Assembly (NCBI GenBank): GCA_965214705.1 | Contig: OZ243972.1 | Span: forward strand, 3,232,001 to 3,296,000 | Source of the DNA: Alphaproteobacteria bacterium | GTDB taxonomy: Bacteria > Pseudomonadota > Alphaproteobacteria > UBA828 | DNA length: 64,000 bases | Reading direction: 5' to 3' | Shown here: piece by piece, positions 5,493-11,503 of the stretch | Numbering within the stretch: the stretch's first letter is position 1 | Layout of the letters: each line of letters starts with the position of its first letter | Made by a program: the position numbers and the translations under genes | The notes under the pieces: model-generated | Told to the model about the DNA's origin: nothing | Seen by the model: the letters and a program-made list of their open reading frames with translations, nothing else | Databases searched by the model: none

Positions 5493-6251
5493 ATGAGCAA
5501 GCCGACAGTCATGATCACGGGCGCCGGAATCGGCATCGGCCACGCCACCGCCTTGGCCTTCGGCCGGGCCGGCTACCACGTCTACGTCACCGACGTGCTC
5601 GACGAGGAGGGGCAAGGGACCGTTGCCGCGATCGAGGCGGAAGGCGGCAGCGCGAGCTTCAGCAACGTCGACGTGACCGACAGCGCCAACGTGAACGACG
5701 CGGTTGCGGCCGCCGAAGCCGCCACCGGCCCGCTGGACGCCGCCATCGCCAACGCCGGCATCGCCCACAAGGTGCCGCTCACCGAGATGAGCGACGAGAA
5801 GTGGGACCATACCCTCGATGTCGACCTCTCGGGCGTGTTCCGTTTGTTGCGCGCTGCGGCGCCGGGAATGCGCGAGGCGAAGCGCGGCGCGATGGTGGCC
5901 GTCTCCTCGGTCATGGGTACAACCTGGGGCTGGCACGACCACGTGCAGTACAACGCGGCGAAGTCCGGCGTGGTCGGGCTGGTGCGCGGCATGGCCTGTG
6001 ACCTGGGCAGCGACGGCATCCGCGTCAACGGCATCGCGCCCGGCTTCATCAAGACCGCGCAGGCGCTCTCGACCGTGCACTCGCTCGGGATGGCGGGGCT
6101 GGAGGCGGCCGCTGAGTACATTCCCCTCGGCCGCTACGGCGAGGCGGACGACATCGCCGACGTGATCCTCTTCCTCTGCACCGACGGCGCGCGCTATGTG
6201 AGCGGCCAGACCATCATCGTGGACGGCGGGGTGACCGTGGGGCGGTATTGA
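5493..6251 (+). CDS. Short-chain dehydrogenase/reductase
   Basis: TGAGIGIG, NAG, YNAAK catalytic motif. Confidence 0.92.
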   Translation: MSKPTVMITGAGIGIGHATALAFGRAGYHVYVTDVLDEEGQGTVAAIEAEGGSASFSNVDVTDSANVNDAVAAAEAATGPLDAAIANAGIAHKVPLTEMSDEKWDHTLDVDLSGVFRLLRAAAPGMREAKRGAMVAVSSVMGTTWGWHDHVQYNAAKSGVVGLVRGMACDLGSDGIRVNGIAPGFIKTAQALSTVHSLGMAGLEAAAEYIPLGRYGEADDIADVILFLCTDGARYVSGQTIIVDGGVTVGRY

Positions 6252-6256
6252 GCGCG

Positions 6257-6883
6257 CTACCAGGTGGCAGGCTTGCGGATGGTCGTGCCGGGGATCGGGT
6301 CCGGCAGTTGAGACTGTTGAAGGACCGTCTTGTTGCGGATGCGTAGCGAAAAGTCGGCGTGTGCAGTCAATTGACGTGAGGGATGCCGGTTTCCCGGAGT
6401 CGCCAGACCGATCAGTTTGCGGTGCTGCTGTTTGACCAAGCGCATCGCCTCGGCGATGTCGCTGTCGTTGGTGACGACGACAGCACAATCGTACTCATCC
6501 AACCAACAATCGTTCAGTAGATGGACCGCTAGGTTGACGTCCGAGGCCTTCTCCTCGGTCCTGATCACCTCGGCGGTGCGCTGACGAGTGGTTGGTGCCG
6601 CCAGCGGCAACCGGACATTGTGGCTGAGGAAGCGGCCCAAGTGGATTTCGATTTCGGGTCGATAGCGCTGTAGCGCACGAAGGTAAACGTGCTGTCTTCG
6701 GGCTTTCGCCGGATCACTGGGCGTTGCCGATACGCGCGCCGTGAAATACTTGATGCTGAGTATTTGATGATGCGGTTGGAGCATGTTCTGAAACAGTGCG
6801 AACAGGTCCAACCACTTCCATGACGAGCCCTTGAGTACCCCGTAGTAGAGGTTGAACCCGTCGACGTAAACGTAAGTGCGCAC
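6257..6883 (-). CDS. NYN domain (LabA/DUF88, PIN-like) ribonuclease
   Basis: YVDGFNLYY, EEKASDV and TNDSD acidic motifs; GTG start preceded by GGAG; lower GC than flanks. Confidence 0.88.
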   Translation of the reverse strand: MRTYVYVDGFNLYYGVLKGSSWKWLDLFALFQNMLQPHHQILSIKYFTARVSATPSDPAKARRQHVYLRALQRYRPEIEIHLGRFLSHNVRLPLAAPTTRQRTAEVIRTEEKASDVNLAVHLLNDCWLDEYDCAVVVTNDSDIAEAMRLVKQQHRKLIGLATPGNRHPSRQLTAHADFSLRIRNKTVLQQSQLPDPIPGTTIRKPATW

Positions 6884-6904
6884 CAATTGCTCCAAATTGA
6901 AGAC

Positions 6905-6926
6905 GGGGCCTCCGAAGAGGCCCCGC
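6905..6926 (-). terminator. Terminator-like hairpin in the leader of the NYN gene
   Basis: CGGGGCCTC-TTCG-GAGGCCCCG perfect 9-bp stem with cUUCGg loop followed by TCTTCAATTT on the minus strand. Confidence 0.6.
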
Positions 6927-6961
6927 ACCCTGCGGTCGAAGCCCCAGGGGGAGTTGCCCGT

Positions 6962-6990
6962 GACATATCCCCGATCCCGTGAAGCGTCAA
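6962..6990 (-). promoter_or_regulatory. Putative sigma70 promoter for the NYN leader/gene
   Basis: TTGACG-N17-TATGTC on the minus strand. Confidence 0.5.
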
Positions 6991-7163
6991 GAGGGGAAAG
7001 GTCAGAGGGTGGCGTTAGTGCCCAGTTGCGCGAACCGTACGCGGTTCTGGATGTAGGCGCTGATGCGGGGTGGGACGATATCCTACCCAGAATATCGAGC
7101 AGTTTCGCTCCCGCAACTGCGGTCTGACGTCAACCAGCTACCGTGTGGGGCGCAAATCTCGTC

Positions 7164-8429
7164 TCAGTCGTCCTTCTCCGCGCCGAAGGAGCCGATGACG
7201 GCGCCGTTCGTGAACTGAGCGTCGAAGGTGCCGGCCACGCCGGACGGCAATGTGGACTGGTTCCCTGGCATCGTATTGTCGCCGTCGACGGCCACAGGTC
7301 CGAAGAACCGACCGTCCTATGAGCCCATCATGCCTTGGTCGCCCTCGGTCGTGCCACGGAACGTGCCGCCTTGTTGACTGCCGAACCGCGCTGCCTCCAG
7401 CTCGACACTCCAGCTTGTGTCGATGGGGCTGCCGCGCTGGTCCCCGAAATCCTCGATCGTGCCGACGATCGAGTAGTGCTTGTTGACGGCCACGTCGTCG
7501 CCGCCAAAGTAGGCCGTCAGCGTCGCATCGGCGATGAACTGGCCGCCCGTCCGGTTCTGGACTTCGCCGTCCAACGTGAAAGTTCTGATCACGTAGAGAC
7601 CCGTCGCCGCACCACTGTAACTGGCCTGACCCTCGAGGCTTTGAACGGTGCCGATTGCGGACTCGGCGGTTCCGCCGGCTATGGCGGCTGCCATGATGAC
7701 GGGCTGGTCGTTCACTTCCGCCTCATTCATCCAGTAGCCGAAATGGATGTAGTCGGAGTCAGGCACCGGCACTGGGAACTCATCGTCGTTGGGTGCGAAG
7801 ATCCAGTCGCCGCCGACGGCGTTCAATTCTGCGTCCATATTGGTTGAGAGAGTGCACATCGAGACGCAGGTGTAGGTGCCCGGCGCGCCATCGAACATGC
7901 CCATGAACGTATCGTCGTCCGTGAACGGCACGCCCACCTGATTGACAGCGGACGGGAACTCAGCCACGCCACTGACTAACCCCACGTTTGAGTTGTCGAC
8001 GATCAAAGAGTCATTCGCTGCGTCGTTGTCCGCGTCATAATCGAACGGATAAACATCGCTGAACGGCGTGTCCTCCGGCGCGTCTTTGTTGCTGTAGATC
8101 ACGAACGTATCTGTCGAATCCGACGCAGTCGTTCGCTCGTACACGATGTCGGCCCAGCCGGCGATTGTGGCTCTGGCCGCGTCGGCTGTCTCCTCGAGCA
8201 TCGTACCGTCCGCGGGCGTCCCCGAGCCGTCCGCGGTCAGCAGGTCGGGCGCCGTTGACGGCGGATCCGCAGTGATTGCCGCGTCGAGCGCCTCACCGCT
8301 GGCTGTGGGCATCGCCGGAGGGGACGACCCGTCACCGCCTCCGCCACCGCAGGCAGACAGGCCTCCGGCCAGGCTTCCAACCATCAGGAGTGCCGTTACC
8401 GAGCGAAGGGATTGGGTCTGGCGTCTCAT
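7164..8429 (-). pseudogene. Transferrin-binding-like beta-barrel lipoprotein with one in-frame TAG at 7317-7319
   Basis: Signal peptide and lipobox LSAC followed by GGGGG; SYSGAATGLY and FIADATLTAYF strands; reading frame continues after TAG (DGRFFGP...GTFDAQFTNGAVIGSFGA) to TGA at 7164. Confidence 0.75.
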
Positions 8430-8635
8430 GGCATCAGGTTCCTCGGCAGCGTGGGTGGGCCGGCGGCAGCGGCCCAATGGGGGAGTGCGACGCTCCGCCA
8501 ACTCCAAGCGAGTCTTGCAAGCGCGCGCCGTTCAGGGAGCGACCTCTCGAAGCATCCCGGCGGCGTCGCGACTCGAGAGAAGCATGCCGAAAACGGTGGG
8601 GCGCTCAGAACGGCAAGTCAACACGGCGCAGGGAG

Positions 8636-10837
8636 CAGGGCGAATTTGTCCAAGCCTGATTTTTGAGTTCTGCGCTACGAGTTGACCTTGGGTCTGGTCA
8701 GCGCGCGCCAACCCTGCTATGGATTGAGGCGACTGGATTCGCGGTGTTCTGCTGCGGATCGGCTTCGAGCAGGGGGACGGTTTCTACGGTGGATCTTTCC
8801 GAGGTCGATGTCGCTGCTGTCCGGCCGGAGGACGAGGCCCGGTTCCGCGCGCTGATGGAGGGGCATCACTACCTGGGTGCGTCTGCGAAGGTGGGGGCGA
8901 CGGCGTGGTACGTCGCCCATCGGCGCGGCGAGTGGCTGGCGCTGGCCGTGTTTTCGGCTGCGGCGCGCAAGTGCCGGGCGCGGGACGAGTGGATCGGCTG
9001 GGACTTCCGCACGCAGCACGGGCGGCTGCATCTGATCGCGAACAACGCGCGCTTCCTGATCCTGCCGGGACGGGGTGTTCCGAACCTCGGCTCGCGGGTG
9101 CTGGGGCTTTGCGCGCGGCGCTTGGCGCGCGACTGGCCGGCCCGCTTCGGCCACCCCGTGCTGATGCTGGAAACATTCGTGGACGCGGCGAGGTTCCGGG
9201 GCACGGTCTACCGGGCGGCTGGATGGCTGGCGGTCGGCCAGACCCGCGGCTTCCGGCGCCACCGCTCGGGCTATGTCGCCGGCTCGACGCCGAAGCTTGT
9301 GCTGCTGCGCCCCCTGGTTCCCGACGCCTGCCGCCGGCTGTCCGCTGCCGGGCTGGATCGGGAGTTGTGGAAGAAAGGAGTTCCGAGAACCATGATCAGC
9401 GCCGCTCAGCAAGAGTCGCTCTACGCCTACTTCAAGGACATCGACGACCCCCGCACGCGCAAGGGACGGCGGCATTCGCTGCCCAGCGTGCTCGCGCTTG
9501 CGAGTGGCGCGACGCTCTGCGGCATGCGAGGCTGGAAGGCCATCTCCGAGTGGGTCGACGATCTCGGCGAGAAGGCGCTGGCCCGCTTCGGCGTGCGGCT
9601 GCGCGACGGGGTGCGCCGGCCGCCTTCGATGTCGACCATCCGCAATGTGGTGATCCGGGTGGACCCGGACCAGTTGGACGAGGCGTTGCGCAAGTGGCAG
9701 GAGGCCCACGGCTCAGGCGACGCGGCGCTTGCCATCGACGGCAAGACCCTGAGGGGGGCCATCGACGAGGACGGGACCCAGGCTCATGTCATGAGCGCGG
9801 TCGGGCACGAGACCAAGGCCACGCTCGCCCAAAAAAACTTCTCCTGAAAGTCGGGGCCGACGAGGAGACAAAGCGCACCAACGAGATCGGCACCGTGACG
9901 GCGCTGGTGGACCTGATCCCGAACATCGCGGGCAAGACGGTCACGACGGACGCGCTGCTAACCCAGCGCAAGTTCGCCCGCTACCTGCTCGACCGGGGCG
10001 CGCACTTCATGTTCATCGTGAAAGGGAACCAGAAGACCATGCGGGACGATGTGACGCTGCTCTTCGAAGAGGCGCCGGAGCGTGAGCCTGACTTCGAGGA
10101 GGAGGCCGCGCTGTCGCACGGACGCATCGAGCAGCGGGCAATCTGGACGAGCACGGAGTTGAACGGCTTTCTCGACTTCCCGGGCGTCGGCCAGGTCTTC
10201 ATGATCGAGCGCTCCCGCCAGGACAAGAAGACCGGCGAGACCGGCACCGAGACCGCCTACGGGATCTCCAGCCACACGCCCGGCACGGCCAACGCGCAGA
10301 GCCTGCTCGCCCTCAACCGCGGCCACTGGTGCATCGAGAACAGCTCGCACCACTGCCTCGACTGGACCTGGGACGAGGACCGCAGCCGCATACGCACAGG
10401 CTTCGGCCCCGAGAACATGACCCGCCTGCGGCGCTTCGCCATCGGCCTGATCAAGGGCCGGGGGCTCGAGGTCGCCTCGACCGTGCGCAGGCTCGCCCGC
10501 AACGTCCGCGCCGTCCTCGACTTCCTGAAAATGACCGGGAACACCCAGCCGAGGACCGCAAAGCGCGCCGCGCCGGCCTGAACCCCGGCGCCCGGCAAGC
10601 CGGGCGCAAAGATCGTACCTGCCTCGCTCCCGACCACGCCGGTGGCGCGATCCATCATGTCGGGGCACCGCCAAATCGCGACGGCACCGCCCGCACCGCC
10701 CACACGGTAATGCCAGAACCCTCTGACCGAACCGGATGCTCGGCCAGACCCCGCCGCAAACCCCGCAACAAAGCCGATCCGCACAACCCGTGGCCAGAAC
10801 TCAACTGCCTACCAGCCGCTTGGACAAATTTGCCCTG
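8636..10837 (+). mobile_element. Complete ISAs1-family insertion sequence (2202 bp) with DUF4338 fusion
   Basis: 20-bp TIRs CAGGGCGAATTTGTCCAAGC (8636-8655) / GCTTGGACAAATTTGCCCTG (10818-10837), 19/20 identical; 10-bp TSD GCGCAGGGAG at 8626-8635 and 10838-10847. Confidence 0.93.
8789..10581 (+). CDS. DUF4338-ISAs1 DDE transposase split by a -1 frameshift at 9832-9838
   Basis: ORF A: HHYLG, RDEWIGW, NNARFLILP, LETFVD (DUF4338), then DDPR and AIDGKTLRG; ORF B (-1 frame): NEIG, TDALLTQ, VKGNQ, HWCIEN, EDRSR. Confidence 0.85.
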
Positions 10838-10897: not shown

Positions 10898-11503
10898 CTA
10901 AAGGACGGCGTCCTTGCCCAACAGCGCCGCGCGGAAGCGGTCCTTGAGGTAGGCGCCGTCGCGGGGCGGGAGGACGCGGGGCAGGGGCTCGGCGTGCACC
11001 TTCACCGTGAGGAAGGTCGGGCCGGGCGTCTCGTGCACCAGCGGGAGCGCGGCGCGGAGGCCGGCTTCGTCCGCGACCTGCTGCGCCTCGACGAAGCCAC
11101 AGGCGGCGGCTGCGGCGGCGAGATCGGTGCGGTGCGCGGTGTGGGTGGGCTGCATCCCGGTCTCGCCATGGCGCTCGTTGTCGAGCACGACGACGGCGAG
11201 ATTGGGCGGCGCCTGGGACGCGATGGTGGCGAGGCTCGCGAGCCCCATCAGCATGTCGCCGTCGCCCGTCAGCACCAGCACGCGGCGCGCGGGCTGCGCC
11301 AGGGCGAGACCGAGCCCGATCATCGACGCATTGCCCATGGCGCCCCAGAGCGAGAAGTGCAGCGGATTGTCGCCGAGCGCGGCACAGTCCCAGGTGGCAG
11401 AGCCCAGGCCGGGAACCACAAGCACGTCGTCGCGGCCTTCGAGCAGAACCGCCGTCGCCGTGCGCCGGTCCAGGGTCGTCTCGGGCCGTTCCCTGCCGCT
11501 CAT
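10898..11503 (-). CDS. TPP-dependent decarboxylase beta subunit (sulfopyruvate/phosphonopyruvate decarboxylase, ComE-like)
   Basis: GDGDMLM...DN TPP-binding motif; WGAMG. Confidence 0.8.
   Translation of the reverse strand: MSGRERPETTLDRRTATAVLLEGRDDVLVVPGLGSATWDCAALGDNPLHFSLWGAMGNASMIGLGLALAQPARRVLVLTGDGDMLMGLASLATIASQAPPNLAVVVLDNERHGETGMQPTHTAHRTDLAAAAAACGFVEAQQVADEAGLRAALPLVHETPGPTFLTVKVHAEPLPRVLPPRDGAYLKDRFRAALLGKDAVL

Follow-up and report, generated by a model that had tools for sequence, protein, structure and literature searches.

Organization of the NYN locus

We studied a stretch of 64,000 nucleotides (nt) from an alphaproteobacterial genome (GenBank assembly GCA_965214705.1, contig OZ243972.1, positions 3,232,001 to 3,296,000; this whole stretch is hereafter called the window). 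On its minus strand, a gene for a ribonuclease (RNase) of the NYN family is preceded by a promoter, a small two-hairpin RNA and an intrinsic terminator (Table 1). Judged from this layout and from the relatives described below, the pair of RNA and RNase looks like an undescribed toxin-antitoxin or defence module.

Table 1. Features of the NYN locus in the window
Feature	Position	Strand	Basis and remarks
Sigma-70-type promoter of the small RNA	6962..6990	-	TTGACG at 6990-6985, 17-nt spacer, TATGTC at 6967-6962; read from sequence
Small structured RNA (NYN-associated two-hairpin motif), ~60 nt	6894..6956	-	Covariance model R1: 61.3 bits, E 8e-18
Hairpin P1	6928..6949	-	CCCUG/CAGGG, G/G 1x1 internal loop, GG/CC, loop CUUCGA containing UUCG
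Hairpin P2, intrinsic-terminator stem-loop	6903..6926	-	10 pairs (8 G-C), UUCG loop; terminator scan
U-rich tail CUUCAAUUU	6894..6902	-	Read from sequence; weak U-tract
Ribosome-binding site GGAG	6890..6893	-	6 nt ahead of the start codon
NYN/PIN-like ribonuclease gene, 208 amino acids (aa), PADLOC HEC-09	6257..6883	-	GTG start at 6883, stop codon at 6259-6257

From its 5′ end, the small RNA consists of a 5-nt tail, the hairpin P1, a pyrimidine linker of 1 nt (U in the window), the hairpin P2 and a U-rich tail, and P1 begins 12 nt beyond the -10 box. A first-pass annotation, made from the letters of the window, had described the promoter, both hairpins, the weak U-rich tail and the ribosome-binding site. 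We found each of them in its place, with P2 now counted as 10 pairs, and the same promoter boxes recur in the same register in the relatives. A strict consensus promoter scan made no call at this promoter because TATGTC has no final T. P2 was the sole terminator-like site reported by the terminator scan between 5900 and 7700, and the window tail CUUCAAUUU is weaker than the family consensus UGCUUUUU. Transcription of the small RNA is predicted to start near A 6955/6954. With a strong promoter and a terminator directly behind it, the short RNA would seem to be the main product. As there is no room for a second promoter in the window, the RNase should be made only from transcripts that read through P2, and the RNA should thus greatly outnumber the RNase mRNA.

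The longest open reading frame (ORF) opens at GTG 6928, within the hairpin P2. From the sequence comparisons, we take GTG 6883 as the true start of the NYN gene, since most of the listed homologs are 207-208 aa long and both matching profiles (Pfam NYN and HEC-09) begin at residue 17 of the longest ORF. The G+C content was said to be lower than in the flanks, and it is indeed 0.575-0.61 over 6200-7000, compared with ~0.70 on either side.

When the 93-nt leader was folded alone, the energy was only mildly unusual (z = -2.06; 6 of 200 shuffled sequences folded equally well or better). The weight of the evidence is therefore in the comparison with relatives and not in the lone window sequence.

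The leader defines a conserved, covarying RNA family

For 12 homologs in related genomes, we compared stretches of 260 nt upstream of the gene; the promoter, two hairpins and tail were the same, and beyond the promoter nothing was similar. Paralogous NYN proteins that are only 38% identical had hairpins of differing sequence in the same layout. From 572 relatives we then retained a broader sample of 80 loci; going by the titles of their records, these loci come from at least a dozen phyla. Alignment of 31 trimmed leaders by MAFFT, followed by RNAalifold, gave a structure of 16 pairs, 14 of which showed a compensatory change. The covariance model R1 (61 positions, 18 pairs), searched over 96 sources with 562,695 bases in total, returned 99 matches.

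The R1 motif was present on the NYN strand, just upstream of the start codon, in 75 of the 80 loci. Among the other five, one carries the motif before an NYN stub, three have no upstream sequence, and one (L084; individual loci are designated by such L numbers) was later found to be convergent: its contig ends 23 nt past the NYN stop codon, and the motif lies on an overlapping contig. Over 82 loci including relatives, the distance from the end of the motif to the NYN start codon was 2-52 nt (median 12). At so short a median distance between U-tract and start codon, an NYN gene in this arrangement would be transcribed only by read-through.

We measured the support for the structure on a model-fitted alignment of 95 distinct sequences, which leans towards the structure; of its 1683 pair cells, 95.7% were paired, against 76.2% in shuffled alignments (none of 500 shuffles reached the observed value) and 36.8-52.0% when the structure was slid along the alignment. 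The covariation score was 0.574 against 0.06-0.13 in the slid controls, and changes on both sides were seen in 16 of the 18 pairs (7 of 8 in P1, 9 of 10 in P2). The covarying two-hairpin motif that the first-pass annotation had proposed to look for upstream of NYN homologs is thus present. G-U pairs are frequent in the family, which fits an RNA read from this strand. Outside the helices, the conserved letters are A3, C7, the UUCG loop (93-99% conserved), the pyrimidine linker, a bulged U near the base of P2 (85%) and the U-tract, whose columns are 84-96% U.

In 60 of the 82 loci, the motif follows a sigma-70-like promoter with a score of 8.5 or more out of 12.5, and many of these promoters in relatives are TTGACA-N17-TATAAT or close to it. 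In 38 of the 60, model position 1 lies 4-7 nt past the end of the -10 box. This register places the start at about the conserved A3, and hence the length of the RNA at ~60 nt.

No Rfam family matched the leader, whether of the window, of 10 diverse loci or of 8 plasmid and phage loci; the only match in this last set was to the ColE1 RNAI. We concluded that the leader represents a new covarying RNA family that matches no Rfam family, and that the adjacency of the motif to one RNase family is obligate. The genome of the window also encodes two distant NYN paralogs (L004 and L005, on G000:C3) that match the HEC-09 profile with E values of 1.5e-11 and 2.3e-5 and have no R1 match. The RNA appears to be specific to the HEC-09-like clade.

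Could the conserved letters act as DNA, for instance as an attachment site or a cassette boundary, or be an ordinary terminator beside a chance hairpin, with no functional RNA at all? Such a reading could draw on a locus where two motif copies stand on either side of a P4-type integrase gene, on a few loci with integrases or transposases in the vicinity, and on the single-sequence fold in the window, which is only mildly unusual. We give this explanation hardly any credence, as the G-U pairs occur on one strand only, the promoter stands in a fixed register with a U-tract following, the covariation is far above that of the slid controls, and over 38 loci the motif tracks NYN and not integrases.

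Two other identities were considered. A small-molecule riboswitch was judged unlikely, because hardly any unpaired positions are conserved besides the tetraloop, the linker and the tail. A repeat element or tRNA fragment was dropped, since there are only two copies in the genome and the loop is a UUCG tetraloop and not a T-loop.

The RNA is a gene in its own right and forms arrays on small plasmids

In ~11 loci, mostly from one phylum, the RNA lies downstream of the NYN gene on the opposite strand. These convergent loci include a Mycobacterium prophage and a Paenarthrobacter plasmid, where the motif (51 bits) is placed just downstream of NYN. The HEC-09 profile matched 20 of 301 genomes in the phylum of an Acidimicrobiaceae metagenome-assembled genome. 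In these 20 genomes, the RNA was convergent in 9, upstream on the same strand in 6 by the model and in 3 more by eye, odd in 1 and unclear in 1. All the convergent loci provide the RNA with its own -10 box in the usual register, and in the nine whose stop codon could be placed (the prophage and the plasmid included), the U-tract of the RNA ends -2 to +18 nt from the NYN stop codon. In one viral contig, the RNA is divergent from NYN behind a TTGACA-N17-TATCGT promoter. Since sequence, structure and promoter are kept while side and strand change, the RNA cannot be only a 5′ leader. These loci show that the small RNA is a gene in its own right, occurring in three arrangements: upstream, convergent and divergent.

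The motif also occurs in a multiplied form. On ColE1-type plasmids of E. coli and Klebsiella, 4.5-4.6 kb in size, 3.5-3.8 tandem copies of a 33-nt unit are followed by a terminator and then by NYN (array loci L129 and L135, period 33). The unit consists of the tail ACAACCCU and a P1-like hairpin, and the fold of the plasmid array is far more stable than that of shuffled sequences (z = -7.24). Two complete units are present in a 3.4-kb E. coli plasmid and likewise in one viral contig. The array type was found in 10 of 5426 complete E. coli genomes and was always plasmid-borne. In more distant plasmid NYN subfamilies (28-35% identity), the start codon is likewise immediately preceded, as judged by eye, by a structured RNA and a strong terminator. 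Overall, the NYN gene occurs on 444 plasmid records, several of the plasmids being only 3.4-4.6 kb long with 3-5 annotated features, and on 3 phage records.

These arrangements bear on the simplest alternative, a purely cis-acting leader whose hairpins attenuate transcription and damp the translation of a costly RNase, possibly with NYN binding or cleaving its own leader for autoregulation. The motif is indeed a 5′ leader in the window and in the 75 loci counted above, the terminator stands directly before the ribosome-binding site, and in the minimum-energy fold of the window sequence a 5′ CUCC pairs with the GGAG of that site. Attenuation would have no need of tandem P1-unit arrays, however, and a near-consensus promoter joined to a terminator would be an odd means merely to keep expression low; in the ~11 convergent loci and the divergent one, where each RNA has its own promoter, there is no 5′ leader to speak of. 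We regard a pure cis leader as unlikely, though deserving of serious consideration. Taken from the sequences, the independence of the RNA, its covariation and its tandem repeats favour a partner acting in trans over such a leader.

The convergent loci raise a different prospect, namely RNA-RNA control. NYN transcripts that run past the stop codon there would be antisense to the RNA, and a duplex or transcriptional interference could regulate the gene as in type I systems. The close spacing of the RNA 3′ end and the NYN stop codon would allow this, as would the hairpin, which has no U-tract in the NYN direction. On the other hand, the RNA is sense-oriented in most loci, including the window, where it cannot pair with the NYN mRNA, and the retention of the same sequence and structure in all three arrangements argues for recognition of the RNA itself. 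We consider control by base pairing very improbable.

The associated protein is a HEC-09-type NYN ribonuclease

The window protein is a member of both NYN and HEC-09. It matches Pfam NYN (PF01936) with 41.7 bits (E 2.2e-10; cut-off 24.2) and PADLOC HEC-09 with an E value of 4.2e-46 over profile positions 3-202 of 203, that is, at full length. No NCBIfam model matches it, and a sequence search of the PDB with the family profile gave no match. An AlphaFold model built from a 36-sequence alignment reached a pLDDT of 93.7, and its best folds by Foldseek were 2qip (VPA0982; E 8.8e-9) and the MARF1 NYN domains 5yaa and 6fdl (E 1.7e-5). The acidic motifs had been reported as intact; in the same alignment, D8, E110, E111, K112, S114, D115, D140 and D142 are invariant and N139 is nearly so. 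To judge from the family, the acidic residues would bind metal. The protein family comprises 6922 clusters at 90% identity. Among 76 NYN frames, 66 were intact, 8 were interrupted and 2 ran off their contigs.

HEC-09 (Hma-embedded candidate 9), a candidate defence RNase, was introduced as an NYN/MARF1-like putative RNase embedded in Hma systems (bioRxiv 10.1101/2024.01.29.577857). In the accessible part of that preprint, it is presented as a single protein gene and an associated RNA is not mentioned.

The RNA persists where the RNase gene is lost

The NYN gene has a patchy distribution: within the genus of the window, 8 of 20 genomes carry it. Sixteen strong copies of the RNA turned up in 13 of 61 related genomes; 8 stand before an intact NYN gene, 2 before a broken one and 6 before none or a stub. 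At the window's own chromosomal site, one relative, whose copy is among these last six, has the promoter and RNA fused to the last ~8 NYN codons, a clean internal deletion, and in another relative DUF6602-like fragments replace NYN.

A pattern scan of viral contigs gave 19 loci, of which 9 were true motif matches (42-80 bits, six distinct elements); none of these nine copies has an intact NYN gene within 900 nt. Conversely, among 32 viral contigs that encode NYN relatives, the model matched just upstream in 24 (7 at no less than 44 bits, 17 weakly), and the motif was divergent in 1. NYN without the RNA was not found among the assessable loci. The RNase is thus often lost while the RNA stays.

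This asymmetry enters into the comparison with another alternative, in which the RNA is a positive partner of the RNase: a cofactor, scaffold or specificity element, or else a decoy or sensor whose loss or modification switches the enzyme. Linkage, covariation and independence apply to it equally. The conserved A3, C7, pyrimidine linker and bulged U point to specific recognition without giving its sign, and an RNA as stable as this one is predicted to be would suit a cofactor more than a labile antitoxin. Frequent orphan RNAs against an apparent lack of solitary NYN genes are what one would expect if the RNA protects against the protein, and the layout of repeat array and terminator matches that of known RNA antitoxins. 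A positive role seems to us improbable on balance.

Side observations concern orphan and duplicated copies. The genome of the window has a second, orphan RNA copy (L107, G000:C1:2110576-2110636; 57.6 bits) downstream of a higB/higA-like pair, and orphan copies beside higBA-like genes were also seen in L110 and in four near-identical viral contigs (L164, L165, L171 and L181). In L035 (5518-6494) and L038 (2187-2670), a second RNA copy lies ~90-220 nt ahead of a small ORF; in L035 this ORF is followed by one of the Fic/DOC family (Pfam E 9.6e-17), which places the motif in islands rich in toxin-antitoxin genes. In L049 (2380-3001), three tandem copies of promoter, RNA and first NYN codons, ~270 nt apart, precede an NYN gene that is interrupted after 23 codons. 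In L077 (2389-3606), the leader and NYN start are followed by a 338-aa ORF joining a DUF1016 N-terminal domain to the remaining NYN domain, an insertion or a fusion. In L030 (1162-2988), the NYN gene follows the second of the two RNA copies that flank the P4-type integrase gene, an arrangement that may be a trace of cassette movement or targeting.

Genomic neighbourhood

The absence of an adjacent protein antitoxin, claimed earlier for the window, extends to the relatives. There is no adjacent, co-oriented gene for a small protein antitoxin in the window, whose neighbours are an SDR gene, a lipoprotein-like ORF and an insertion sequence (IS), and no neighbour family recurred among the 76 nearest flanking ORFs of 38 loci, which points to there being no protein partner. 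These flanking ORFs range over rpoD, pdxA, relaxases, integrases, transposases and methylases. The NYN genes of L029, L052 and L102 lie beside N6_N4 methylase or ResIII genes, and in a prophage the NYN gene stands between integrase and repressor.

The IS in the window (8663-10581, plus strand) encodes an ISAs1-type transposase with a DruA-like N-terminal domain (Pfam DruA and DDE_Tnp_1_assoc), split over two overlapping frames. An intact transposase of 615 aa with the same three domains is found just upstream of the NYN module in L032, an unrelated gammaproteobacterial metagenome-assembled genome.

Two remnants were noticed between this IS and the promoter. At 7163-7200 (minus strand), a gene end (...GSFGAEKDD, stop) lies ~150 nt past the stop codon of the 396-aa lipoprotein-like ORF (7317-8507, minus strand) and out of frame with it, and in the relative L015 a similar end (...GSFGAEKED, stop) is located directly upstream of the leader. 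The lipoprotein-like gene of the window is probably frameshifted or truncated. Just upstream of the promoter, CCACCCTCTGACC at 6995-7012 (minus strand) resembles the last codons and stop of the gene that abuts the leader in L012 and L013, and the window homolog of that gene ends at 10898. The remnant and the position of the homolog together suggest that ~3.9 kb, comprising the lipoprotein ORF and the IS, was inserted upstream of the window promoter.

A proposed RNA-restrained ribonuclease

The reading that we favour, with moderate confidence, is that the RNA would be a dedicated partner that binds the RNase and holds it inactive, the two forming a type III-like toxin-antitoxin or abortive-infection module with a PIN-like toxin. 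The first part of this module would be the small RNA gene, in which a constitutive sigma-70 promoter with a start near 6955, P1 and the P2 terminator would yield a product of ~60 nt. The second part, 10 nt further on, would be the 208-aa metal-dependent PIN-like RNase, made via read-through of P2. The RNA would bind the RNase and keep it inactive, as an RNA antitoxin does in type III systems, and the RNase would act once the balance is upset, for example on plasmid loss or when transcription is shut off in phage infection. We infer the binding, the inhibition, the toxicity and the role in defence or plasmid addiction from the sequences and their arrangement.

Several considerations weigh against this proposal. 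The RNA is compact, G+C-rich and closed at both ends and is therefore likely to be stable, and classical antitoxins are labile. A search for tandem repeats in the window between 6800 and 7350 found none, so that the RNA there is a single unit, and with its weak U-tract the read-through may be substantial. The base of P2 may be conserved in part for its work as a terminator and not for recognition by the protein. The persistence of the RNA where NYN has gone owes something to ascertainment, as the copies were found by an RNA search, and several of the NYN 'pseudogenes' come from metagenome assemblies, where the interruptions may be sequencing or assembly errors. Finally, none of the coliphages tested was held off by HEC-09 when it was cloned together with its putative native promoter region, and the accessible part of the study reports no toxicity (bioRxiv 10.1101/2024.01.29.577857). 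The first-pass annotation had proposed an RNA-antitoxin module of type III-like kind. The layout that it described is real and strongly conserved; the antitoxin or anti-phage step is read into that layout, and the HEC-09 phage test, as far as the preprint is accessible, was negative.

A wider version of the proposal is more tentative, and we would sooner doubt it than rely on it. The NYN/HEC-09 RNases and the two-hairpin RNA might constitute a large and so far unrecognised family of type III-like modules with an RNA antitoxin, in which a PIN-like toxin would appear for the first time; the family would extend over many phyla, small plasmids and prophages, with the RNA as a single terminated unit or as an array. 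The orphan copies in phages and in genomes without NYN might then be decoys that disarm the RNase.

Should restraint by the RNA prove real, the RNA antitoxins would gain a large family whose toxin has a different fold, and a common gene of small enterobacterial plasmids would acquire a function. Restraint could also explain why HEC-09 looked inert in the phage test, since its own inhibitor was maybe cloned along with it. The pair (~60 nt and 208 aa) would furthermore be a naturally minimal RNA-protein couple for structural and engineering work. Even if the mechanism differs, there is an RNA family here that is absent from Rfam matches, has strong covariation across many phyla and is directly testable.

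Comparison with known systems

Type III systems (ToxIN, CptIN, TenpIN; AbiQ) consist of one promoter, a non-coding RNA, an intrinsic terminator and an endoribonuclease gene, have no protein antitoxin, and reside on plasmids and prophages. The window shares the gene order of promoter, RNA, intrinsic terminator and RNase gene without a protein antitoxin, and relatives of its module are likewise found on plasmids and prophages. ToxI-like repeats are present in the E. coli and Klebsiella plasmid relatives (3.5-3.8 copies of 33 nt), whereas the window has no array. There and in the great majority of the sampled loci, a lone two-hairpin unit with a terminator of its own makes up the RNA, which would thus need no processing. 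Moreover, the RNase has an NYN/PIN-like fold and not the ToxN/AbiQ fold, the RNA gene can be convergent or divergent, and the window RNA matches no described antitoxin RNA family in Rfam. To our knowledge, the known type III toxins (the ToxN, CptN and TenpN families) are not NYN proteins, and a literature search, from which subscription journals and preprint supplements fell outside, found no description of an RNA partner for NYN proteins or of an NYN-type type III toxin. We would call the module type III-like in layout and, given the different toxin fold and the lack of tandem repeats in the window, would not file it as a type III member.

The toxin of the type II system VapBC is a PIN-domain RNase, paired with a protein antitoxin. 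The present module resembles it in having a small PIN-like, presumably metal-dependent RNase in a compact, mobile and patchily distributed unit. It differs in that no adjacent small protein gene recurs and an RNA gene takes the position of the partner. With HEC-09 the relation is one of membership: the window protein is a full-length representative of this MARF1-like NYN RNase, and unlike the copies described in the accessible part of the preprint, it is not embedded in an Hma (helicase, methylase, ATPase) system (bioRxiv 10.1101/2024.01.29.577857).

The likeness to self-regulating RNases is of another kind, as here too a conserved stem-loop RNA, a possible target of the enzyme, stands ahead of an RNase gene. 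RNase III (through the rnc leader), RNase E (through the rne 5′ untranslated region) and Regnase-1 (through a stem-loop of its own mRNA) autoregulate via structured RNA elements. Their elements are parts of mRNAs, whereas a promoter and a terminator belong to the element described here, which is not tied to the strand of the RNase gene.

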